Notes: generated from the letters alone by a model not told the origin. A stretch of DNA of 64,000 nt from Bacteroidota bacterium (GCA_016706865.1 JADJIS010000002.1:484419-548418); one strand, 5' to 3'. Counted from the first letter of the stretch, positions 1-63,983 are shown. Numbers and translations: made by a program.

Positions 1-1
1 A

Positions 2-718
2 TCAGAAGATGGAACTCGATTAAATAAATATCTCGCTAATTCAGGTGTTGCGGCGCGCAGAAAATGTGATGAAATAATTGAAAAAGGAGAAGTTACCGTT
101 AATGGAAAAGTAGTGCGCGAAATGGGTTACAAAGTAAAACCCGGCGACTCCGTAAAATATAAAAATAAACCCATTAAACCTGTTAATTACGTTTATATTT
201 TGTTGAATAAACCGAAAGATTATTTAACAACGGTAGATGATGATAAGGGTAGAAATACAGTAATGGAATTAATTTCCAATGCGACTACAGAACGTGTATT
301 TCCTGTTGGAAGATTAGATAGAAATACCACAGGATTATTATTGTTGACCAACGATGGCGACCTCGCACAAAAATTAGCTCATCCTAGTTTTGGAGCTAAA
401 AAGATCTACGAAGTTGAAGTGGATAAACCGGTAACACAAGCTGATATGCAAAAAATTTCTGATGGTGTTATGCTGGAAGATGGATTGGCCATTGTTGACG
501 GAATAGATTACGCACATCATACCCAAAGAAATATTTTAGGTATTTCGTTGCACATCGGAAAAAACAGAATTGTCCGCCGCATATTTGAATCACTTGGTTA
601 TAAAGTTGAGCGTCTCGACAGAACTTTATATGCCGGATTAACAAAACGCGATCTTCCCAGAGGAAGATGGAGATATTTGACGGAACGTGAGATTATTAAG
701 TTGAAGTACCTTAAATAG
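2..718 (+). CDS. pseudouridine synthase, RsuA/RluB family (5' end outside window)
   Basis: Frame 2 is open from the window edge (SEDGTRLNKYLANSGVAARRKCDEIIEKGEVTVNGKVV, an S4 RNA-binding domain). The GTG at 113 in the ORF track is therefore internal. The catalytic motif GRLDRNTTGLLLLTNDG is present. Stop TAG at 716-718. Confidence 0.9.
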   Translation, partial: SEDGTRLNKYLANSGVAARRKCDEIIEKGEVTVNGKVVREMGYKVKPGDSVKYKNKPIKPVNYVYILLNKPKDYLTTVDDDKGRNTVMELISNATTERVFPVGRLDRNTTGLLLLTNDGDLAQKLAHPSFGAKKIYEVEVDKPVTQADMQKISDGVMLEDGLAIVDGIDYAHHTQRNILGISLHIGKNRIVRRIFESLGYKVERLDRTLYAGLTKRDLPRGRWRYLTEREIIKLKYLK

Positions 719-783
719 GATTTAGGACATAGGACATAGGAAGTAGGACTGACATAGGACATGGGAAAATGGACATAGGAAAA
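716..783. repeat. heptanucleotide tandem tract (TAGGACA-type, about 9 units with one 4-nt interruption)
   Basis: Reads taggatt taggaca taggaca taggaag taggact (gaca) taggaca tgggaaa atggaca taggaaa. The first unit begins with the TAG stop codon of the upstream gene. Confidence 0.9.
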
Positions 784-790
784 CAAAATT

Positions 791-1470
791 GTATCAGGAA
801 TCAAGTATCAGGAAAACAAACAGTGGGATTTGGTAAAATTTCGCAAGAAATTTAAACTCCTTTCTCCTCTCTCCTTTCTCCTTTTTAGTATCGGGTATCA
901 GGAATCAAGTATCAGGAAAACAAACAGTGGGATTTGGTAAAATTTCGCAAGAAATTTAAACTCCTTTCTCCTCTCTCCTTTCTCCTTTTTAGTATCGAGT
1001 ATCAGGAATCAAGTATCAGGAAAACAAACGGTGAGATTTGCAAAAATTTCGCAAGAAAAATCCTTTTTCGAATTAAGAAATAGGACCTAGGAAGTAGGAA
1101 AACAAACGGTGGGATTTGGTAAAATTTCGCAAGAAATTTAAACTCCTTTCTCCTCTCTCCTTTCTCCTTTTTAGTATCAGGTATCAGGAATCAAGTATCA
1201 GGAAAACAAACGATGGGATTTGAAAAAATTTCGCAAGAAAAATCCTTTTTCGAATTAAGAAATAGGACCTAGGAAGTAGGAAAACAAACGGTGGGATTTG
1301 GTAAAATTTCGCCAGAAATTTAAACTCCTTTCTCCTCTCTCCTTTCTCCTTTTTAGTATCAGGTATCAAGAATCAAGTATCAAGAAAACAAACGGTAGAA
1401 TCTGGTAAAATTTCGCAAGAAATTTAAACTCCTCTCTCCTCTCTCCCTCCCTCCTTTTCTTTTATAATAT
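791..1470. repeat. composite tandem array: 7 copies of a hairpin core in alternating 104-bp and 78-bp units
   Basis: The core ggaaaacaaacNgtgggatttggtaaaatttcgcaagaaa starts at about 811, 915, 1019, 1097, 1201, 1279 and 1383, giving spacings of 104, 104, 78, 104, 78 and 104. Each core holds the hairpin AAATTTC-GCAA-GAAATTT. Long units are flanked by the heptamer blocks (GTATCAG/GAATCAA)n and (CTCCTTT/CTCCTCT)n. Confidence 0.9.
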
Positions 1471-1615
1471 GATTCTGTAGAAATTATTCAACAAGAATAA
1501 GAATATAATGTAAAAAATTTCTTTTTATTCTACAATATTAATCATCCTGTTCCCTTGCATAAAGCATATTTTCTAATGGCATGATTTTGTTCTAAAAAAG
1601 TATAAAAACTTATAT

Positions 1616-2146
1616 ATGGAACATAATTTTCATGATGAAGAAAATAACATCAAAAATCTTAGTGGTCAGGAAGCAATTGATTTATTAAAAAAGATTGCAG
1701 AAGGTGCGCGTATTTGTATGTTCACTACCTTTTCCGAAAATCGTCCCCTGCCAAGCAGACCTATGGCACTTCAGGCAGTGGATAATGATGGAACCTTGCA
1801 TTTTTTTAGCGCTGTAAATTCTGATAAGAATGCGCAGATAGTTGCAGATCCTTATGTTCAATTATTTTTCGAAAATTCCAGTGCAAGCGAATATCTGAGC
1901 ATTTATGGCCAGGCAACAATTTCGCACGACAGAGAAAAGATCAAGGAATTATGGACATCCTGGGCAAAAGCATGGTTTCAGGAAGGCCCGGAAGATCCAA
2001 TGCTTACCTTAATTAGCGTCCGACCTGATACAAGCAGTTATTGGGATACCAAACACAATAAAATGGTTTCACTTTTCAAGATAGTTGCATCTATGGTGAG
2101 TGGTAAGGTTATGGATGATGGGGTAGAGGGGAAACTGAATATATGA
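1616..2146 (+). CDS. general stress protein 26 / pyridoxamine 5'-phosphate oxidase-like FMN-binding protein
   Basis: 176 aa. Split-barrel family pattern (ARICMFTT...RPMALQAVDNDGTLHFF...ATISHDREKIKELW) matches the size and layout of GSP26-type proteins. Confidence 0.8.
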   Translation: MEHNFHDEENNIKNLSGQEAIDLLKKIAEGARICMFTTFSENRPLPSRPMALQAVDNDGTLHFFSAVNSDKNAQIVADPYVQLFFENSSASEYLSIYGQATISHDREKIKELWTSWAKAWFQEGPEDPMLTLISVRPDTSSYWDTKHNKMVSLFKIVASMVSGKVMDDGVEGKLNI

Positions 2147-2149
2147 CTG

Positions 2150-2241
2150 GGAAATAGGAAGTAGGACATAGGACACAGGACATAGGACTTGATATAGGAC
2201 AATGTAAAATGATATAGGACGATGTAAAATGATTTATGACG
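2150..2241. repeat. heptanucleotide tract (TAGGACA-type) followed by a 20-bp direct repeat
   Basis: Starts 4 nt after the TGA at 2144-2146 and reads taggaag taggaca taggaca caggaca taggact. It is followed by ataggacaatgtaaaatgat and ataggacgatgtaaaatgat (2194-2233). Confidence 0.85.
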
Positions 2242-2512
2242 GATGTTGTTTGCAATCTTGTGGCTCGGCAGAATTAACAAAAGAATTGAAGTGGATTCTA
2301 AGGATAATTCATGCTGTGGTGTCTCCACAGAGTTACGCGCAGCGAACTCTGTGGATGGGTAGGATAAAAATTAATGTTTATTCAAACTTTGAATTATTGT
2401 GGATTCAGATATTTCATGAAAGTATTTTAGTAAACAATTTTTTGAAATGTTACTGCGTTTTATTTTGTGTAATTAACATATCGTTAAAAGCCCTGAATAT
2501 TAACCCTTCAAC

Positions 2513-3139
2513 ATGAAATTCCTGTTTACAGTATTCTGCTTATTGATGTCTGTAATGCTCATCGACTGCAGAAACCCAACTATAAGTCCTGAAGAAACAA
2601 AACCTGCTGTTAATGTTGATTCCACACGTATAAAGGCAGCTGAAGCACTTGAATATTGTAAATCGAAAAAATTTAATACTGATTTTTGTATTTTGATTGA
2701 TATGAGTTTGCATTCCGGTGTTAAACGCTTTTTTGTTTGGGATTTTACAAAGGATACCATCAGTTACAGTTTTTTGGTGGGTCACGGATGTTGCAACAAT
2801 GCCTGGAGCAGCGATCAATCAAAAGAAGACCCAACCTTCAGTAATGTGGATGGAAGTCATTGCTCCTCCCTTGGAAAATACAAGATAGGGGAAAGAGCTT
2901 ATACTTATTGGGGAGTAAAAACAAAATATGTATTACATGGATTGGAAAGTACCAATAGTAATGCACTTTCCAGATATATCGTCTTCCATTCCTGGGAGGC
3001 AATTTCAGATGTGGAAGTGTATCCAAATGGCACACCTGAAGGCTGGGGCTGTCCTGTGATCTCCAACAACAGTTTCACTACTCTTGACCCAATATTAATG
3101 GCGGTAAAAAAACCTGTGCTTATGTGGATATATAATTAG
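2513..3139 (+). CDS. L,D-transpeptidase catalytic-domain family protein (YkuD_2-like), secreted
   Basis: N-terminal signal/lipoprotein-like peptide (MKFLFTVFCLLMSVMLIDC). The pattern FVWDF...SFLVGHGCC...GSHCSSLGKYKIGE...LHGLESTNSNA...IVFH is typical of this family. Confidence 0.7.
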   Translation: MKFLFTVFCLLMSVMLIDCRNPTISPEETKPAVNVDSTRIKAAEALEYCKSKKFNTDFCILIDMSLHSGVKRFFVWDFTKDTISYSFLVGHGCCNNAWSSDQSKEDPTFSNVDGSHCSSLGKYKIGERAYTYWGVKTKYVLHGLESTNSNALSRYIVFHSWEAISDVEVYPNGTPEGWGCPVISNNSFTTLDPILMAVKKPVLMWIYN

Positions 3140-3142
3140 ATA

Positions 3143-3204
3143 TAGGACACGGGACACGGGACACGAGACACGAGACACGGGACACGAGACACGAGACAAA
3201 AGAC
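3143..3204. repeat. heptanucleotide tandem tract (CGGGACA/CGAGACA, 8 units plus a partial one)
   Basis: Begins 4 nt after the TAG at 3137-3139 and reads taggaca cgggaca cgggaca cgagaca cgagaca cgggaca cgagaca cgagaca aaagac, in perfect 7-nt register. Confidence 0.9.
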
Positions 3205-3317
3205 TTACTTTGATTGTAAATTTATGCTTCTAATTCAAATTATATTTGATTTAATTTAATAGGAGACTTGTATTATTTTATTCTTTAATTTTGAGATCAT
3301 GAATTCAAAATGAAATT

Positions 3318-3998
3318 ATGGAAAATTTGCCAATTTATATTTCAATTTTATTTGGTCTCATCACACTTTTGACGGTGGGATTATTTTATAAGGCAACAAA
3401 CAGATCAATACTTTCTCTAGTAATTTTATTGACTTGGTTGGTTATTCAGGCAGTTATTGCTCTGACAAATTTTTATACTGTTACAGATACAATCCCACCA
3501 CGATTTTTGTTATTGGTAATGCCACCAATACTATTTATCATTCTGCTATTTGCTACCAATAAAGGTCGAATATTTATTGATAGTTTGGATATAAAAGCAT
3601 TAACATTATTGCATATCGTACGAGTACCGGTTGAAATTGTTTTATTCAGGTTATTTATATATATAATGATTCCTGAACTTATGACTTTTGAAGGAAGAAA
3701 TTTTGATGTCATATCAGGAATTAGCGCACCTCTCATTTATTATTTTGGATTTGTGCAAAAACAATTAAGTAATAAAATAATAATAATTTGGAATGTTTTA
3801 TGTTTGATGCTCCTTTTTAATATTGTTATAAATGCAGTATTTTCCGCACCATTTCCTTTTCAAAAGTTTGCATTCGACCAGCCCAATATCGCAATTTTAT
3901 ATTTCCCTTTTAACTGGTTGCCATCTTGTGTTGTGCCCATTGTTTTATTCTCCCATATTGTAGTAATTCGACAATTATTAAAAGTGAAAACTCTTTGA
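3318..3998 (+). CDS. integral membrane protein, unknown function
   Basis: 226 aa with about 6 hydrophobic segments. No family recognised. Confidence 0.6.
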   Translation: MENLPIYISILFGLITLLTVGLFYKATNRSILSLVILLTWLVIQAVIALTNFYTVTDTIPPRFLLLVMPPILFIILLFATNKGRIFIDSLDIKALTLLHIVRVPVEIVLFRLFIYIMIPELMTFEGRNFDVISGISAPLIYYFGFVQKQLSNKIIIIWNVLCLMLLFNIVINAVFSAPFPFQKFAFDQPNIAILYFPFNWLPSCVVPIVLFSHIVVIRQLLKVKTL

Positions 3999-4516: not shown

Positions 4517-5449
4517 ATGACAAGAAATGCTAAATTGATCCTCGAAACTATTGCAGTTTTTCTTTTTAATAGTTGTCTGGCAATATTTATCAGTACTTTA
4601 TCGGTAGCTGCAGGGATCAAAATGACCATATACATTCCTGTGTTATTATTTCAAGGTCTTTGGTTTTATCGGTTTTATATAGTAGGTCATGAAGCTGCAC
4701 ACAAAAAATTATTTCCTTCCAATGCTAAAATAAATGATTTTTGGGGATCTGTTATTTTGATTCCCCTGATGGTGCCCATCACTATTTACAGAAAAATTCA
4801 TTATTTTCACCATGGTTTTAATAGAAAAAATGATCATACTTCTGCATTGGATACCTATGTGATACAAGGCAAACCAACCATGTTAAAAAAACTATATGTT
4901 TATATTCTCTGGTATCTGAGTGTGTTTTTGGGTGGATTTTTTTTACATTCCCTTATTTCGGTAATTTTATTTTTATTCATACCCCCAAAAATTTCGGTTA
5001 AAATTTCCCCCGCATTTAACAACTGGACGCCAAAGGATCAGTTGCGATCAATTGTACTATTTTTATTGGGAGTAGGTTTTCACCTTGCCGTTTTGTTTTT
5101 GTTCGGCAGAACAATTTATTTATATGTTTTAGGATATCCCATGCTTGCTTTTGCCTGGGTATTGTCGCTATTAGTGTATATTTTTCATTATGATACCACC
5201 AAAGGAGATGAAGTAAGATTTAACGTGCGATCTGTAAAACGTATTCCGGTATTTTCCTGGATACTTATGAATTTTAATGAACACGCGACACATCACCAAT
5301 ATCCGAATATCCCCTGGTATGAATTACCCATTAAAAGTAAACCGCTACCGGAAACCTTCGAAACAAAAAATCAAAACACACGAAATTTTTTTAAAGCAAT
5401 TCTCAACCAATTCAAAGGCCCTGTAATAGTATATGAAAAGCAGGATTAG
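4517..5449 (+). CDS. membrane fatty-acid desaturase family protein
   Basis: Three histidine boxes (HEAAH, HYFHH, HATHH) lie between hydrophobic segments. Confidence 0.85.
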   Translation: MTRNAKLILETIAVFLFNSCLAIFISTLSVAAGIKMTIYIPVLLFQGLWFYRFYIVGHEAAHKKLFPSNAKINDFWGSVILIPLMVPITIYRKIHYFHHGFNRKNDHTSALDTYVIQGKPTMLKKLYVYILWYLSVFLGGFFLHSLISVILFLFIPPKISVKISPAFNNWTPKDQLRSIVLFLLGVGFHLAVLFLFGRTIYLYVLGYPMLAFAWVLSLLVYIFHYDTTKGDEVRFNVRSVKRIPVFSWILMNFNEHATHHQYPNIPWYELPIKSKPLPETFETKNQNTRNFFKAILNQFKGPVIVYEKQD

Positions 5450-13625: not shown

Positions 13626-15095
13626 ATGCAAAATAAATTCTCCAGAAAAAATTTTATCACACTAACTACACTTGCCGGAGCCGGATTAATTTTAGATGCA
13701 TGTGGTGCAGGAGGGGGAAAGGAGAGAGGAGAAAGCAGTGAGGAGTATGCAGATTCTTTGAATCTGCCTGAAGAGGAAAACGAGTTTACATATTCCGTAA
13801 AATTAATTCGAAAAGAGGATATGGAATATGAAGAATTGCGTAAAGGATTTAATAAACGCATTAATAAATTTCCATTAATAATTGCGCTTTGTACATCAAC
13901 ACAAGATGTTTCAGAAGCCATTAAATATGCTAAAATAAATAAACTGGCAGTTACAATTAAAAGTGGCGGACATAGTATGGAGGGATTTTCATCTAATGAT
14001 GGAGGGCTTGTTATTAATTTGTCGAAAATGAATTCCGTGGAATTTTTAGAAAACAATAATATAAAAGTTGGTCCCGGTTGCACTTTGTTTAATTTATATG
14101 ATCAAATACTTCCTAAAAAAAGATTATTACCTGCAGGCTCTTGTGGAACCGTTGGCATCGGCGGTTTAACTATGGGAGGTGGATATGGTTTATTTTCCAG
14201 AAAATTTGGTTTGACTTGCGATCATTTGCTGGAAGCAACTTTTGTTGATGGTAACGGAAAAATACATTCTACAAAAGATGACCCTGAATTATTATGGGCG
14301 CTGCGTGGCGGTGGTGCAGGAAATTTTGGAGTAGTAACAGAAATGGTATTTCGCACACAGGAAGCTCCTTCTGTAATGAGGTCACATCATTTTAAAGCAA
14401 GAAAACTGGATGCACTACGTGCAAAAAACATTTTAGAAAAGTGGTTTGAATTTACAGCAAAATTATCGGACACCTGTTTTTCGGCATTTGTATTAAATGG
14501 CAGTACATTAAATATTCTGGTGACAAATTTTGGTGAACATAATTCCACTTTGGAAACAAATTTGAAGGAACTTGCTCAGCACACGGATGAATTCAGATCA
14601 GTTGCACCAATTGAACTATCTAAAAAATTAAAGAATTATTACGGATCATTGGCTCCGGTAAATTTCAAAAATTCATCTGCAGGATTGTATAAAAGTTATA
14701 AAGATATTTCAGGCTTCATTGCTGATGTATTTGAAAAAATAATTCATAATCCCGGAATGATATATCAATTAAATACTTTGGCAGGAAAAATTAATGATGC
14801 TGAATTTGAAAAAGTTTCCTGTTACCCTCATCGTGCTTACAATTATATTTCCGAATTACAAGCCTATTGGGAAGATGTTTCCCGTGAAGAAAAATTAAAA
14901 ACAGTTTCCGTAGAAATATTGGATATATTTAAAAGTAACGGAATTACCTCACAATACATCAATTATTGCAGCACCGAATTCGCCAATTGGGAAAATTCGT
15001 ATTATGGAAACAATTATCCGAGGTTGCAGGAGGTGAAGAAAAAATATGATGCAAGTGATGTTGTGAGGTATGCACAGAGTGTGAGGGTGGGGTGA
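13626..15095 (+). CDS. FAD-linked oxidoreductase (FAD_binding_4 plus BBE-like C-terminal domain), exported
   Basis: Tat/lipoprotein-like leader (SRKNFITLTTLAGAGLILDAC), a GGHSMEGFS FAD-binding motif and a C-terminal BBE-like YINY...NYPRLQEVKKKYD. Confidence 0.85.
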   Translation: MQNKFSRKNFITLTTLAGAGLILDACGAGGGKERGESSEEYADSLNLPEEENEFTYSVKLIRKEDMEYEELRKGFNKRINKFPLIIALCTSTQDVSEAIKYAKINKLAVTIKSGGHSMEGFSSNDGGLVINLSKMNSVEFLENNNIKVGPGCTLFNLYDQILPKKRLLPAGSCGTVGIGGLTMGGGYGLFSRKFGLTCDHLLEATFVDGNGKIHSTKDDPELLWALRGGGAGNFGVVTEMVFRTQEAPSVMRSHHFKARKLDALRAKNILEKWFEFTAKLSDTCFSAFVLNGSTLNILVTNFGEHNSTLETNLKELAQHTDEFRSVAPIELSKKLKNYYGSLAPVNFKNSSAGLYKSYKDISGFIADVFEKIIHNPGMIYQLNTLAGKINDAEFEKVSCYPHRAYNYISELQAYWEDVSREEKLKTVSVEILDIFKSNGITSQYINYCSTEFANWENSYYGNNYPRLQEVKKKYDASDVVRYAQSVRVG

Positions 15096-59057: not shown

Positions 59058-59954
59058 ATGCAAAAGATTCTGATAACAGGTGGTTCGGGTTTGATAGGAC
59101 GGCGTTTGACCGAAATTTTAGTGGCGGGAGGTTACCACATAAATTGGTTGAGCAGAAGTAAAAAAACGATACCCGGTGTTACTGTTTTTTTGTGGGATAT
59201 TGATAAGGGATTTTTGGAAGAAAGTGCTTTTAGTGGGGTGGATGTTATTATTCATTTGGCCGGAGAGGGAATTGCCGACGAAAGATGGACAACATCCCGA
59301 AAAAAAATGATCATTGAAAGCAGAACAAAAAGTACGGATCTCCTGATAAAAAAACTACGTGAAATTCCCAATCAGATAAAAACCGTTATTTGCGCATCTG
59401 CGATCGGGTTTTATGAAACTAATGCCAATTCCATAATAAATGAAGAAAATAAGTCGGGAACAGGGTTTCTCAGCGAATCGGTTTCTATATGGGAAAGCAG
59501 CACTAAAAATTTTGAAACTCTACCAATAAAACTCGCCACTATTCGAATTGGAATTGTTTTATCAAAAAAAGGTGGCGCCTATAAAGAATTGATCCAAACA
59601 AAGCCCATGGGAATATTACCCCTTATGGGAAATGGCAAACAAATTTATTCGTGGATTCATATTGACGATGTTTGTGGTATTTTTTTATTCGTTTTGGAAA
59701 ATAAACTTCATGGAATATTTAATGCAGTTGCCCCTAATCAGGTCTCCCAAAAAACAATAATGCAAACAGTAAAAAAGTATTCCAAAGGATTTCAAATAAT
59801 TGTTCCGGTTCCTGCTTTTGGATTAAAATTGATTTTAGGCGAAATGAGCAATGCAGTTTTAAATTCTCAAAAAATAAGCGGCGATAAAATAATTAACGCA
59901 GGTTATAAATTTAAATTCCCGAACATCGAAGATGCGATCAATGATCTGGAATGA
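59058..59954 (+). CDS. TIGR01777 (YfcH-like) NAD-dependent epimerase/dehydratase family protein
   Basis: ILITGGSGLIGRRL Rossmann motif and a C-terminal DUF1731-like GYKFKFPNIEDAINDL. Confidence 0.9.
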   Translation: MQKILITGGSGLIGRRLTEILVAGGYHINWLSRSKKTIPGVTVFLWDIDKGFLEESAFSGVDVIIHLAGEGIADERWTTSRKKMIIESRTKSTDLLIKKLREIPNQIKTVICASAIGFYETNANSIINEENKSGTGFLSESVSIWESSTKNFETLPIKLATIRIGIVLSKKGGAYKELIQTKPMGILPLMGNGKQIYSWIHIDDVCGIFLFVLENKLHGIFNAVAPNQVSQKTIMQTVKKYSKGFQIIVPVPAFGLKLILGEMSNAVLNSQKISGDKIINAGYKFKFPNIEDAINDLE

Positions 59955-59967
59955 GTAATGAGTTATG

Positions 59968-59994
59968 CCCGCCCGAAAGACCCGGTCGGACGGG
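59968..59994 (+). terminator. GC-rich hairpin after the stop codon (weak terminator candidate)
   Basis: CCCG-c-CCGA ... TCGG-a-CGGG, 14 nt after the TGA. No T-run follows; the heptamer tract does. Confidence 0.3.
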
Positions 59995-60023
59995 AGTATT
60001 GAGTTTGTTCCTACTCGGATTAA

Positions 60024-60183
60024 AACCCAGAACCCAGAACCCAGAACCCAGAACTCAGAACCCAGAACCCAGAACTCAGAACCCAGAACTCAGAACCCAG
60101 AACCCAGAACCCAGAACCCAGAACTCAGAACCCAGAACCCAGAACCCAGAACTCAGAACTCAGAACTCAGAACCCCGAACTCA
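60024..60183. repeat. 22 perfect-register heptamers (AACCCAG x14, AACTCAG x7, AACCCCG x1) plus a partial unit
   Basis: Counted unit by unit from 60024 to 60177 with no indels. The final partial unit aacTCA supplies the complement of the vWA gene's TGA stop codon (60181-60183). Confidence 0.95.
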
Positions 60184-62148
60184 TTTATTCGCCGCAAGCC
60201 CTGTGCAAGTTTTCAGCATATTGATAAAATCTTCGCGATAACCGTAGGTATCTAAACCTCTGGCTGAATTTGCCAATTTAATTGCCTCTTCATAGGTAGC
60301 ATCTCCTTTATATTCGCTGTCTCTTAATATCATTCCAAATTCAATTACTGCACTCGCAAAACGGAAATTATCACTTGTGGATGCCAATGGAATAGCTTTA
60401 GAGGAAAGTGATTTTTCTATTAATTTACTTGTTTCACTATTAGGTGCCTTGAATCTCAATTTTAATGTCATGATCTCATCGGTGTTGTATGCATTTTTGT
60501 TTACTTCGGTGGTTTGATATTTTAAAGTTTCACCAGATGGTTTTTCATTGGAACCACTTGGTTGATATTGATTTGCACGTAATTTAATTTCATACATTGC
60601 GGTAACGCGATGTCCTGCACCGAGTTCACCGGCATCTTTTGCATCGTTATCAAAATCTTCATTATTTAAAGTTCTGTTCTCATAACCGATCAAACGATAT
60701 TCTTCAACCAAAGCAGGATTAAATTCGATCTGAATTTTTACATCTTTTGCAATGGTAAATAGGGTTCCGCGCATATCGGTAGTAAATACTTTTTTTGCTT
60801 CTTTTTCATCGTCGATATAATAGTAGGCGCCATTTCCATTATCAGCAATGGATTCCATTTTACTGTCTTTATAATTTCCTAAACCGAATCCACATATCGT
60901 TAAAAATACCCCGGTTTTTCTTTTTTCTTCTACAAGGCGTGTCATTTCCGCATCGCTGCTTGTGCCAACATTAAAATCGCCATCTGAACATAAAATAACT
61001 CTGTTATTTCCTTCCGGTATTAAATTTTTTACTGCTATATCATAAGCGAGTTTTATACCTGCACCACCTGCGGTACTTCCACCGGCTTCGAGATTATTTA
61101 TTGCGTCTTTTATTTTCTGTTTATTTGAGCAAGTTGTGGATGGTAAAACTTCTCCTGCGGCACCTGCATATACTACAATTGCAACTCTGTCTTTTTCATT
61201 TAAATTATCTATCAATGAAATTAAAGAATGTTTAACGAGTGGTAATTTATTGGGATCCTGCATACTGCCACTTACATCAATTAAAAAAACAAGATTGGAT
61301 GCATCGGCTTCAGAATAATCAATTTCCTTTCCCTGTAATCCAACCATAATTAATTTTGTTGATTTATTCCAGGGACATTCACTCATTTCATAATTAATGG
61401 AAAATGGATCATTGCCTTTTGGTTTGTTATAGGTGTAATCAAAATAATTCACCATTTCTTCAATACGCACAGCATCTTTTGGAGGAACTTGTCCGTTATT
61501 AATAAATCTGCGGATATTAGAATAGGATGCATTGTCAACATCAATGGAAAATGTAGATAAGGGATTGCCGATCACCTTTTTAAAAATATTTTCATTTATG
61601 GCATTATAGGATTCTGTATTAAAATCGGGCCCATAATCGGCTTCAATTCCCTCATAAGTGGCATCAGCCATATAGATTTGGCCAGAATAACTTTGATTTG
61701 CTTCTACTTTTTTGTAGCTTTTATCTTCTCTTTTTTGCGGTGAAATTCCTGTTTCCGAATCCTCTTTTTCCCTGATTACCATTTCCTCTATTATGATCTC
61801 CGTTTGTAATTTAACATCCAATTTTAATTGATCATTATTTTTTAATTCTATTTTTTTCTCTACCAAAACATAATTTTCTTTAAAGAATGTTATTTGATAT
61901 TTATCCGCTTCCAGATTTGAGAAAATATAATTTCCCAAAGAATCGCTTGTAGTTTCCGTTTTTCCCTTTTCGGATTTTATTTCAATAGTTGCATTGGCGA
62001 TAGGATTGCCAAAATCAACATCCGTAATTACACCACTAATGGTTGCAGTACCCGTCAATGGCAATGAATTGTTTTTTTTGCCTCCGGCGATAATTATTCC
62101 GGTGAGCAATAAAATTGTAACTCCCGAAAAAAGAATGATCCTTTTCAT
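60181..62148 (-). CDS. von Willebrand factor type A domain protein (YfbK-like) with an N-terminal CarboxypepD_reg-like domain
   Basis: MIDAS motif VFLIDVSGSM. N-terminal ISGVITD...PIANATIEI beta-sandwich. C-terminal DUF3520-like region. Confidence 0.88.
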   Translation of the reverse strand: MKRIILFSGVTILLLTGIIIAGGKKNNSLPLTGTATISGVITDVDFGNPIANATIEIKSEKGKTETTSDSLGNYIFSNLEADKYQITFFKENYVLVEKKIELKNNDQLKLDVKLQTEIIIEEMVIREKEDSETGISPQKREDKSYKKVEANQSYSGQIYMADATYEGIEADYGPDFNTESYNAINENIFKKVIGNPLSTFSIDVDNASYSNIRRFINNGQVPPKDAVRIEEMVNYFDYTYNKPKGNDPFSINYEMSECPWNKSTKLIMVGLQGKEIDYSEADASNLVFLIDVSGSMQDPNKLPLVKHSLISLIDNLNEKDRVAIVVYAGAAGEVLPSTTCSNKQKIKDAINNLEAGGSTAGGAGIKLAYDIAVKNLIPEGNNRVILCSDGDFNVGTSSDAEMTRLVEEKRKTGVFLTICGFGLGNYKDSKMESIADNGNGAYYYIDDEKEAKKVFTTDMRGTLFTIAKDVKIQIEFNPALVEEYRLIGYENRTLNNEDFDNDAKDAGELGAGHRVTAMYEIKLRANQYQPSGSNEKPSGETLKYQTTEVNKNAYNTDEIMTLKLRFKAPNSETSKLIEKSLSSKAIPLASTSDNFRFASAVIEFGMILRDSEYKGDATYEEAIKLANSARGLDTYGYREDFINMLKTCTGLAANK

Positions 62149-62273: not shown

Positions 62274-62422
62274 CTAGTGACTTGTGACCTTGGGTGAATA
62301 GTGAATAGAAGTGAGTATGATCCTCTAAGCATTGAAGCTATGGATATAGGCTCTAAACTTTTTTTCCGAGTCGAAGTATACTCACCACTCACTACTCACC
62401 ACTTACCACTCCCCACCTCACG
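62274..62422. repeat. two heptamer-periodic tracts in inverted orientation (xxGTGAx versus xTCACxx)
   Basis: Left arm 62274-62322 reads tagtgac ttgtgac ... tagtgaa tagaagtgagtat. Right arm 62376-62422 reads gtatactcaccactcactactcaccacttaccactccccacctcacg. AGTGAGTAT and ATACTCAC(c) are complementary. Confidence 0.7.
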
Positions 62423-62433
62423 ATTTCGGTGCT

Positions 62434-62462
62434 CAAAAAAAAAGACCCTTTCGGGCCTTTCT
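62434..62462 (-). terminator. intrinsic terminator
   Basis: On the minus strand: AAAGGCCC-GAAA-GGGTCTTT followed by a 9-nt T-run. It lies 22 nt after the stop at 62484. Confidence 0.85.
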
Positions 62463-62483: not shown

Positions 62484-62822
62484 TCAATCCAAAAGCATAT
62501 CAATAAATACCAGATCGCCACCAACGTCTTTGGCTTTGCGAACGGTGTCCCCTTCGTGGGAAACAACAATTCTGATTACAATATCGTCGCTACCTCTTGC
62601 CATTAAATACATAGGCTCGCCTATCGTAGCAAAAACATCTTGTTTCCAAGAGCCTTTTTGGGCATAAACGGTCTCTGGAGTTCCGTCAGCTCTTAAAAAA
62701 GTTACATCAAATTCATCACCGGTTACACGGTAAGTGATCTTTTTTGTGTCTGGTAATACTTCTTCATTACAAGCCTGGAATAGAAAAAAACTAGCTATCA
62801 AACACAGAATTAAATTCTTCAT
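62484..62822 (-). CDS. small lipoprotein, unknown function
   Basis: Lipobox LFQAC. 112 aa. Confidence 0.6.
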   Translation of the reverse strand: MKNLILCLIASFFLFQACNEEVLPDTKKITYRVTGDEFDVTFLRADGTPETVYAQKGSWKQDVFATIGEPMYLMARGSDDIVIRIVVSHEGDTVRKAKDVGGDLVFIDMLLD

Positions 62823-62951: not shown

Positions 62952-63896
62952 TTATGGCGTTTTTGACATTTTTTCAAAGGTAGAATCATATTCTTTCATC
63001 AAATTTTGTATGATTTCTGACGCGGGTAAAATCTCTTTAATTGTTGCACTTATCTGTCCTATCTCCAATTCTCCTTCCTCTAATTCTCCCAGAAACATGC
63101 CCTTCTTAGCGCGACCTCTTCCTAATAACATTTTCAGTTCCTCCACAGTGGCTTTATTTATATACGCTTTTTCCACTTGGGCATAAAACTCATTTTTTAT
63201 CATCCGAACCGGTGTTATCTCCTTTAAGGTAAGCACCGTAGAACCCTCATCGGTATTGATTATCCTTTGTTTAAAATTTTCGTGGGCTGAACTTTCCAGA
63301 CTTGCCGCAAATCTGCTTCCTACCTGAACTCCCTCGGCACCAAGTGCCATACATGCAAACATTGCCCGTCCATCTGCAATTCCTCCTGCTGCAATAACCG
63401 GAATATCCAAAGCATCGCTCACCATGGGAATCAGACATAAGGTAGTGGTCTCCTCACGTCCATTGTGACCTCCCGCTTCAAATCCCTCGGCAACAACGGC
63501 ATCACATCCGGCCTCCTGACTTTTCAAGGCGAATTTTTTACTGCTCACCACATGAACCACAGTAATTCCGTTATCTTTTAACTTTTGGGTCCATGTTTTA
63601 GGATTTCCTGCGCTGGTAAAAACAATTTTTACTTCCTCCTCTATAATAATATTTATATGTTTATCAATATCAGGATATAATAATGGAACATTCACACCAA
63701 ATGGTTTTTTTGTTGCAGCCTTACATTTTTGAATATGTTCTCTCAAAACCTCCGGATACATACTTCCACTTCCTATCAACCCCAATCCCCCCGCTTCACT
63801 CACCGCACTCGCCAATCTCCACCCACTACACCAGATCATGCCCGCCTGCACAATGGGATATTTGATATTAAATAATTCTGTTATTCTGGTTTTCAT
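62952..63896 (-). CDS. nitronate monooxygenase / FabK-like FMN-dependent oxidoreductase
   Basis: YPIVQAGMIWCSGWRLASAVSEAGGLG, GFEAGGH and PVIAAGGIADGR motifs. Confidence 0.88.
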   Translation of the reverse strand: MKTRITELFNIKYPIVQAGMIWCSGWRLASAVSEAGGLGLIGSGSMYPEVLREHIQKCKAATKKPFGVNVPLLYPDIDKHINIIIEEEVKIVFTSAGNPKTWTQKLKDNGITVVHVVSSKKFALKSQEAGCDAVVAEGFEAGGHNGREETTTLCLIPMVSDALDIPVIAAGGIADGRAMFACMALGAEGVQVGSRFAASLESSAHENFKQRIINTDEGSTVLTLKEITPVRMIKNEFYAQVEKAYINKATVEELKMLLGRGRAKKGMFLGELEEGELEIGQISATIKEILPASEIIQNLMKEYDSTFEKMSKTP

Positions 63897-63906
63897 TTGT
63901 AATTGT

Positions 63907-63983
63907 TAGGACGTAGGACATAGGACGTAGGACGTAGGACATAGGACATAGGACATAGGACATAGGACATAGGACATAGGACT
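63907..63983. repeat. 11 tandem heptamers (TAGGACA/TAGGACG)
   Basis: Counted from 63907 to 63983 in perfect register. Same unit as the tracts at 716 and 2155. Starts 11 nt upstream of the ATG at 63896. Confidence 0.95.

Follow-up and report, generated by a model that had tools for sequence, protein, structure and literature searches.

Heptanucleotide tandem arrays adjoining stop codons in an activated-sludge Chitinophagales genome and in distant phyla

Intergenic heptamer arrays have been reported in bacteria since 1990, first as the STRR family. In heterocystous cyanobacteria, these heptamers reportedly (the work of Mazel and colleagues in 1990) occur as about 100 dispersed intergenic copies that fall into several unit families per genome; we take the units of STRR1-3 to be CCCCAGT, TTGGTCA, and CAACAGT. 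Here we describe heptamer arrays in a 64,000-nt stretch of DNA from a Bacteroidota bacterium (GCA_016706865.1, JADJIS010000002.1:484419-548418; hereafter, the window), in which they begin at the stop codons of three consecutive + strand genes. The STRR heptamers, which had been named as the closest parallel in the original prediction made from this sequence, are an apt comparison, because both systems consist of tandem heptanucleotides in several dispersed intergenic unit families. The two differ in unit sequence (here TAGGACA, CGGGACA, AACCCAG, ACTCACC, GTATCAG, and CTCCTTT) and in host, which here belongs to the Chitinophagales (Bacteroidota).

Arrays of TAACTGA and other heptamers have been described in Beggiatoaceae, Cyanobacteria, and five Bacteroidetes (Flexibacter, Gramella, Aequorivita, Paludibacter, and Elizabethkingia), and one Flexibacter set lies directly behind a stop codon (MacGregor 2015, PMC4679880). 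The earlier statement that no equivalent was known for Bacteroidota is thus not supported. Like the arrays reported here, those of MacGregor 2015 are intergenic, carry stop triplets in the unit, share their unit with distant phyla, and are missing from orthologous gaps of close relatives. Most TAACTGA sets, however, lie just upstream of starts in forward orientation, whereas the enrichment here is at stops and the unit sequence is another one. GGGAATC arrays in Xanthomonas and Nostoc are 89-93% intergenic, lie on average 28 nt from the upstream open reading frame (ORF), and are mostly located 0-50 bp away from its stop or overlapping it (Rehm 2015, PMC4692102); a stop-codon bias of heptamer arrays had thus been reported earlier for these two genera. 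In the same study, heptamer arrays of Xanthomonas were mostly transcribed, and sister species differed at shared gene pairs. The GGGAATC/GGGGAYT arrays of Rehm 2015 resemble ours in being strictly heptameric and intergenic, in varying in length and sequence between sister species, and in forming inverted pairs. They differ in being rich in G tracts and forming G-quadruplexes, whereas the units described here carry stop triplets and no such tracts, and many unit families occur together in a Bacteroidota host. Heptanucleotides are the most abundant class of long simple sequence repeats (SSRs) in bacteria, according to Mrazek 2007 as cited in PMC4679880 and PMC4692102. As portrayed in those citing papers, long SSRs (LSSRs) of 5-11 nt share with our arrays a length beyond chance in non-pathogens, the restriction of non-triplet periods to noncoding DNA, and a proposed origin by slippage; LSSR is a statistical category and not a mechanism, and placement at stop codons and orientation lie outside its definition. 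Dimers of TAGGACA or TGTCCTA were not found in the open-access literature searched. The arrays at the three focal genes are therefore members of a class that has already been described and is functionally unexplained; they are also real and statistically strong.

The first focal gene (1..718, + strand) encodes the 3' part of an RluB-type pseudouridine synthase, assigned from the ORF list and from the Pfam families (S4, PseudoU_synth_2) of the matching gene in L001-L005. Its stop codon, read in the sequence as TAG at 716-718, doubles as the first triplet of the first unit of array 1 (716..782, + strand). Array 1 comprises about 9.5 TAGGACA-type heptamers (TAGGATT, TAGGACA, TAGGACA, TAGGAAG, TAGGACT, then GACA, then TAGGACA, TGGGAAA, ATGGACA, TAGGAAA), interrupted by this single 4-nt indel, GACA, at 751-754; Tandem Repeats Finder (TRF) called it at 715-780 with period 7 and 9.9 copies. 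The second gene (1616..2146, + strand; ORF list, Pfam) is PNPOx-like (pyridoxamine 5'-phosphate oxidase family) and ends with TGA at 2144-2146, separated by 1 nt from array 2 (2148..2189, + strand), which reads TGGGAAA, TAGGAAG, TAGGACA, TAGGACA, CAGGACA, TAGGACT. The third gene (2513..3139, + strand; ORF list, Pfam) encodes a YkuD_2 (L,D-transpeptidase catalytic) domain and ends with TAG at 3137-3139. Array 3 (3137..3198, + strand) consists of TAGATA and TAGGACA followed by seven units of CGGGACA/CGAGACA, with a 21-nt super-period. Arrays 1 and 2 were delimited by sequence reading, TRF, and pattern search, and array 3 by sequence reading and TRF. All three were called as period 7 by TRF, and all begin at or no more than 1 nt from the stop codons, so that both the constant period and the starting point, as originally predicted, were confirmed. 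Across the window, the pattern TAGGACATAGGACA with up to three mismatches occurred 30 times, against 3.75 expected. A GGACA-type array likewise adjoins the stop of atpG (L001 715-800; about 7.5 kb upstream of where the window begins), which makes this the fourth consecutive + strand gene of the series: the atpG TAA is followed by GCGGGCG, CGAGGCG, CGCGACA, AGGGACA, CAAGACA, and CAGGACT, and the array ends in GGACATAGGAAAACAAAATG, which is also the 3' boundary of array 1.

The excess of period 7 is specific. In the intergenic DNA of the window (6.8 kb), where the predicted excess was checked, we found 11 period-7 arrays covering 524 nt, compared with 0.0 in 200 dinucleotide-preserving shuffles, and periods 5, 6, and 8-12 were at background level in the same comparison. 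TRF scores of the window arrays ranged from 50 to 258, which places them among tandem arrays longer than chance in the sense of the LSSR class (unit 5-11 nt), and period 7 also dominated the TRF output over 127 sequences. The YkuD protein was found encoded on 68 blocks of public contigs. The three focal arrays were base-for-base identical in six independent assemblies, namely two metagenome-assembled genomes (MAGs) from NCBI and several wastewater metagenomes from ENA, from different samples and assemblers. The focal arrays are therefore not artefacts of assembly, an outcome against which the prediction had asked to be checked. The remaining window arrays were recovered in eight assemblies, one of them a 545-kb contig of the MAG GCA_963852155.1.

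A scan for exact (TAGGACA)3 in one genome per species returned at least 120 loci. Among the matches listed, dozens came from two Gemmatimonadales MAGs (GC 0.63-0.69) and many from one activated-sludge Chitinophagales MAG (GC 0.36); others were in Saprospiraceae MAGs or scattered in Cyanobacteria, Planctomycetota, Omnitrophota, Chloroflexota, and Deltaproteobacteria. Arrays of 8-14 TAGGACA units were present in the isolates Cytophaga sp. FL35, Vreelandella venusta NBRC 102221, and Euzebyella saccharophila 7SM30 (L033, L035, L075). Transfer by phages found no support, with 7 matches in 2.9 million viral contigs. TRF detected several unit families per genome, and the Chitinophagales MAG had the unit set of the window (TAGGACA, CGGGACA, GAACCCA, GTATCAG, CTCCTTT, GTGAGTA). 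One Chitinophagales locus (L019) was syntenic with window positions 57.8-64 kb at 76-83% nucleotide identity, and the window is therefore from a related Chitinophagales species.

Where both neighbours of a TAGGACA array could be resolved, the stop of a same-strand gene lay on its 5' side in 39/50 cases (18/21 at low-GC loci). The median distance from stop to array was 14 nt for TAGGACA arrays, and it was 10 nt or less in 19/44. In gaps between co-directional genes, 23 TAGGACA arrays were in sense orientation and 5 in antisense. We compared the number of stop-facing flanks of at most 10 nt with uniform placement of the array within each gap: 19 were observed against 8.4 expected for TAGGACA arrays, 27 against 10.3 for all other units, and 16 against 5.2 when only low-GC loci were considered, whereas start-facing flanks were not enriched (9 observed, 9.1 expected). 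Stop-adjacent placement is thus 2-3 times as frequent as uniform expectation at about 120 loci in many phyla, as in the earlier report of arrays 0-50 bp from stops or overlapping them, and the predicted bias toward gene 3' ends holds beyond the window. At overlapping loci the stop codon was the first triplet of the first unit in TAGGACA, TAGGGAG, TAGGCGG, TAGGAGT, TAGATTT, TGAAGTT, TGACAAT, and TGATTTG arrays; the stop triplet within such units follows automatically from the overlap. TAA was rare in genes that adjoin arrays (2/18, compared with 133/272 overall). Stop triplets on the sense strand were rejected as an independent rule, being tautological at overlapping arrays and numbering 5 sense to 12 antisense in the other units more than 12 nt from the stop. 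A general tendency of arrays to lie nearer the stop than the start in co-directional gaps was also tried and was not significant overall (13/28 and 35/56). The real positional signal is the class of arrays that adjoin a stop codon.

Three additional arrays lie near the right end of the window, and 4/6 window arrays adjoin a stop codon. The longest is a 22-unit array of AACCCAG/AACTCAG (60024..60183, - strand; TRF, sequence, and interspecies comparison), placed between convergent genes. On the - strand it reads TGAGTTC/TGGGTTC and starts with the TGA stop of the - strand gene 60181..62148. A degenerate GGTGAGT-type array of about six units (62380..62421, - strand, ACTCACC on the + strand; TRF, assembly comparison) lies downstream of a canonical intrinsic terminator (62434..62462, - strand), which folds as AGAAAGGCCC-GAAA-GGGUCUUUUU with a U-run (U9); this terminator belongs to the - strand gene 62484..62822 and sits between the stop codon of that gene and the array. 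The third, (TAGGACA/TAGGACG) x11 (63907..63982, + strand; TRF, sequence, assembly comparison), is 10 nt upstream of the ATG of a - strand NMO-family gene (62952..63896) and is hence antisense and at a start. Heptamer arrays occupy only 6/43 of the window gaps of at least 30 nt, in clusters at 0.7-3.2 kb and 60-64 kb. Every true window array falls in a gap between ORFs, as expected of LSSRs, whose non-triplet periods are excluded from coding DNA.

Comparison of assemblies separated the arrays by length. The short degenerate arrays (the three focal arrays and the one at 62380) were invariant in 6-8 assemblies, the latter in 8. The 63907 array had 11 units in the window, 10 in six assemblies including the 545-kb contig, and 11 in another A/G order in two. 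The 60024 array had another unit order in L131 and another length in L132; short-read contigs stop at this 157-nt AACCCAG array, and its unit number is therefore unreadable from them. Between near-identical strains, long pure arrays thus differ by the gain, loss, and reordering of whole units. The suggestion that the tracts are prone to slippage was correct for these two long arrays; unit-number variation was confined to them and was absent from the focal arrays.

Related species extended the comparison. Orthologous arrays were found among them: L019 and L112 both retain the position of the array on the start side of the NMO gene, where their variant units are different ones. Beside the stop that matches the 60024 array, L019 has only 2-3 units, compared with 22 in the window; judging from this alignment, the array evidently grew from a seed of 2-3 units beside the stop codon. 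The end of the epimerase ORF of L019 lies within a CGTGAGG array. Array 3 was absent from the YkuD orthologues at 82-85% identity (L139, L140, L142), which have TAA at the matching codon position, and it is a recent lineage-specific gain that sits precisely on the ancestral stop codon. At the matching stop, the RluB orthologue has TAG and then GGTATCG x2. These comparisons of strains and species indicate that arrays arise, grow, give way to others, and vanish on the timescale over which species diverge.

Some arrays are also linked to larger repeats. Array 1 continues into a tandem mosaic repeat of 104/182 nt (791..1455, + strand; TRF, core motif search, assembly comparison), in which [GTATCAG]n is followed by a AGGAAAACAAACRGTGGGATTTGG core, the hairpin AAATTTC-GCAA-GAAATTT, and [CTCCTTT]n, with TAGGACC/TAGGAAG inserts. 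The hairpin has a 7-bp AU-rich stem and a GNRA loop. The core motif occurs in 5-7 copies here and also in L001, L022, L047, L069, L089, L115, L139, and L140, and the gap that holds the repeat measures 900, 795, 614, or 536 nt depending on the assembly. The core or the hairpin lies 3' of TAGGACA-type arrays elsewhere in this genome (L001) and in relatives (L069, L089, L115, L047, L139), and the 3' boundary GGACATAGGAAAACAAAAT is common to two loci. Because the core and hairpin recur beside arrays, some arrays have probably spread within larger dispersed repeats, in the fashion of mosaics of repetitive extragenic palindromes (REPs) and bacterial interspersed mosaic elements (BIMEs). The core itself, which has no Rfam match, is a dispersed family that resembles REPs/BIMEs or miniature inverted-repeat transposable elements. 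The REPs of enterobacteria are imperfect palindromes of about 35 nt mobilised by RAYT transposases. REP/BIME elements share with our arrays a dispersed, mosaic, strain-variable occurrence at gene 3' ends or between convergent genes and co-transcription with the upstream gene; our arrays, however, are non-palindromic tandem heptamers, and only the associated core has the 7-bp AU-rich hairpin. Directly 3' of array 2, TRF detected a 20-nt tandem repeat, TGATATAGGACGATGTAAAA, in 2.8 copies (2190..2246, + strand) with an embedded TAGGAC unit, which indicates that pieces of arrays have been duplicated at a higher order. An unrelated element of about 250 nt, starting TCCCTTACGGACAAGATTGAACACAAAACGGCAACAAT, is dispersed in 18 copies over the Gemmatimonadales MAGs (L007, L028, L034, L039, L050, L056, L059, L060, L077, L085, L087, L088, L097, L121, and L123), and every copy lies immediately 3' of a heptamer array of TAGGACA, TTAGGAC, or TAGGGAG. 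The element is possibly mobile, with arrays as its target or its cargo.

On balance, we favour the view that the arrays are slippage-driven heptamer microsatellites of the STRR/LSSR class, partly dispersed in mosaic repeats and retained flush against stop codons. Slipped-strand mispairing would create and resize the arrays, and some would have been copied around the genome within mosaic repeats made of array, core, AU-rich hairpin, and CT-rich array. The stop codon would be the nearest point at which a period-7 array is harmless, and arrays would persist there; an array may even include the stop itself, because an out-of-frame array with TAG or TGA in each unit ends translation at once. The promoter and 5' untranslated region (UTR) side of the gap is presumably constrained. 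The focal arrays, being short, degenerate, and stable, would most likely be passive passengers in the 3'UTR. Several points weigh against this view. TAGGACA recurs at dozens of loci per genome, whereas independent slippage predicts locus-specific units, and its strong bias to sense orientation, in unrelated phyla, is not predicted by a purely neutral model. The position of the 63907 array beside a start is kept in three species, which hints at selection, and the period of 7 is not accounted for by the slippage model. As for the survey, its loci were ascertained through TAGGACA, and its gene ends came from an ORF-based caller instead of annotation, so that start positions are approximations and high-GC loci probably include spurious ORFs.

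Because unit recurrence, sense bias, and period 7 are left unexplained by slippage, a reading in which the arrays are bound by a protein is kept alive, although we regard it as unlikely. The arrays would then be putative platforms of single-stranded RNA or DNA in the 3'UTR for an oligomeric protein, one heptamer per protomer, by analogy with HutP on (UAG-N4)3, TRAP on spaced GAG/UAG triplets, and CspB on heptamers, and binding would govern the stability of mRNA 3' ends, read-through to the following gene, or the release of ribosomes. The sense bias of TAGGACA arrays behind genes fits such a role, as do their lack of structure, which would leave them accessible, the use of one unit at many loci in several phyla, the conserved position of the 63907 array across species, and the transcription of most Xanthomonas heptamer arrays (PMC4692102). 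The form (UAG-GACA)n of arrays 1 and 2 and of the 63907 array is exactly UAG-N4, and HutP contacts U498, U505, and U512, 7 nt apart, a precedent for the reading of (UAG-N4)n RNA (PMC2425495). The likeness to HutP and TRAP sites lies in this predicted single-stranded geometry; HutP sites, however, are two sets of three triplets in a Bacillus 5' leader, and other units of this genome do not contain UAG. Array 3 has CGG/CGA in place of UAG and has thus lost the triplet. Since a single genome contains many units (TAGGACA, GGTGAGT, AATGAGT, CGTGAGG, GTATCAG, CTCCTTT, AACCCAG), either many binders or a non-specific one would be called for, and no candidate protein has been put forward. Close orthologues and 37/43 window gaps do without arrays, and units more than 12 nt from the stop show no bias of stop triplets to the sense strand.

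A broader possibility, which we consider rather improbable, is that the arrays are cis-elements of an undescribed cross-phylum system built on a binder with a 7-nt register or on an array-seeding enzyme. It is conceivable that a multimeric protein reading a HutP-like UAG-N4 geometry behind terminating ribosomes would control the fate of mRNA 3' ends; active seeding and copying of unit-specific arrays at stop codons by an enzyme is also conceivable. Such a system, if true, would explain sense-oriented TAGGACA at dozens of loci from Chitinophagales (35% GC) to Gemmatimonadales (66% GC).

The proposal that the arrays act as terminator surrogates, or form 3' ends in place of a hairpin and U-run, was not borne out, and we give it little credence. 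It drew on the position directly behind stop codons and on the lack of a canonical hairpin and T-run behind the three focal genes. The latter observation was correct: a search for terminator-like sites found none behind any of the three, nor was there an inverted repeat of at least 12 nt in 700-3300. This absence is not distinctive, because terminator-like sites were not enriched across the window at all (17 versus 13.9 expected; 1 versus 6.1 expected). As RNA, the focal arrays are essentially unstructured and lack a stem and a U-run, with minimum free energies of -5, -8.9, and -3.8 kcal/mol for arrays 1, 2, and 3 (-4 to -9 kcal/mol overall) that were not better than those of shuffled sequences (z-score of array 2, +0.4). 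A long 3' stem between array 1 and the downstream CTCCTTT array, in which AGGA and UCCU are in register, was tried and rejected (z = +1.05). Rfam gave no match, either in a gathering-threshold scan of the whole window or in an E-value scan of 600-3400, and the window contains no tRNA or tmRNA. The arrays are also poor loading sites for Rho, because G exceeds C on the sense strand (TAGGACA, G2/C1; CGGGACA, G3/C2) and C-richness is confined to the antisense strand. G-quadruplex-forming heptamer arrays of Xanthomonas contain transcript starts or ends somewhat more often than controls do (PMC4692102). The focal units have no GGG tracts spaced like those of GGGAATC and do not fold beyond shuffles; CGGGACA has one G3 per unit, and its spacers contain C and A. 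Arrays occur in only 6/43 gaps, orthologous genes manage without them, and the 62380 array lies downstream of the real terminator with U9 and the 63907 array upstream of a start codon.

It is similarly doubtful that the arrays are contingency loci at which the number of units switches or tunes expression of a neighbour, as the original prediction also suggested. A period that is not a multiple of 3 would suit phase variation, for which an SSR inside an ORF or promoter is expected. The focal arrays, however, lie behind stops, where a change of length cannot shift the frame, they did not vary in copy number in 6 assemblies, and the genes beside them (RluB, PNPOx, YkuD, atpG) are of housekeeping type and belong to neither the surface nor the restriction-modification class; contingency is therefore an unfit account of them. 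Only the 63907 array lies 5' of a gene. On the NMO mRNA strand it presents AUG in all three frames regardless of how many units it has, and an in-frame TAA lies between it and the ORF.

A role as strand-specific insulators seems just as remote. Rho would load on the C-rich antisense strand (UGUCCUA, AACCCAG) and block convergent or antisense transcription or, in a variant, G-rich sense RNA would form putative R-loops. Units that adjoin stops do mostly have G>C on the sense strand, a read-through transcript from the opposite gene would contain the C-rich strand of the AACCCAG x22 array between convergent genes, and antisense (UGUCCUA)n is unstructured (-3 kcal/mol). The G>C skew stems largely from the TAG/TGA within the units, however, and it is reversed (23 to 10) in arrays farther from stops; co-directional genes flank most arrays, and convergent transcription is not expected in such gaps.

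An assembly or sequencing artefact, to which the breaks of short-read contigs at the AACCCAG array and the assembly-dependent length of the 104/182-nt repeat region might point, has a negligible chance overall and is refuted for the focal arrays by their identity in independent assemblies, the other arrays being present in eight including the 545-kb contig, and by orthologous arrays in related species and arrays in isolate genomes.

Our analysis adds an uncultured activated-sludge Bacteroidota lineage with dense heptamer arrays to the described hosts. It extends stop-flush placement from Xanthomonas and Nostoc to about 120 loci in many phyla and with many units, and shows clearly that one unit is biased to sense orientation, besides documenting dynamics within populations and between species. 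The isolates with (TAGGACA)n make binding and reporter experiments feasible. In practice, the arrays break short-read assemblies, and in high-GC genomes they can mislead gene callers through ORFs that run along the stop-free strand.

Several minor features were noted. An apparent array inside an ORF (13720-13745) proved to be a purine-rich coding stretch with 73% matches and was rejected. Two AATGAGT units (59950..59963, + strand, from the sequence) lie over the TGA stop (59952-59954) of the epimerase gene 59058..59954. A GC-rich hairpin, CCCGCCCG...CGGACGGG (window 59966-59998; L019 2250-2283), lies between this gene and the convergent VWA gene; it is flanked by AATGAGT units and kept in the related species L019 although the adjoining heptamer array is not. 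L019 also carries heptamer arrays in inverted orientation at 4559-4716, GCGTGAAGCGTGAAGCGTCAATCGTGAATCC ... GGATTCACGCCTCACGATTGACGATTCACG, which form a long inverted repeat; similar convergent pairs of arrays are found in Xanthomonas (Rehm 2015, PMC4692102). The 1.3-kb gap behind atpG contains three copies of a 60-nt tandem repeat (L001 900-1100), each with a CCACAACCCCGGGTAGGGGTGG hairpin. To the right of the window end, in reverse orientation, GATTCGAAG-type repeats whose period is 8-9 nt come after the stop of an NTP-transferase gene (L131 5722-5850), and one assembly (L133) has a 24-nt repeat-mediated deletion there.

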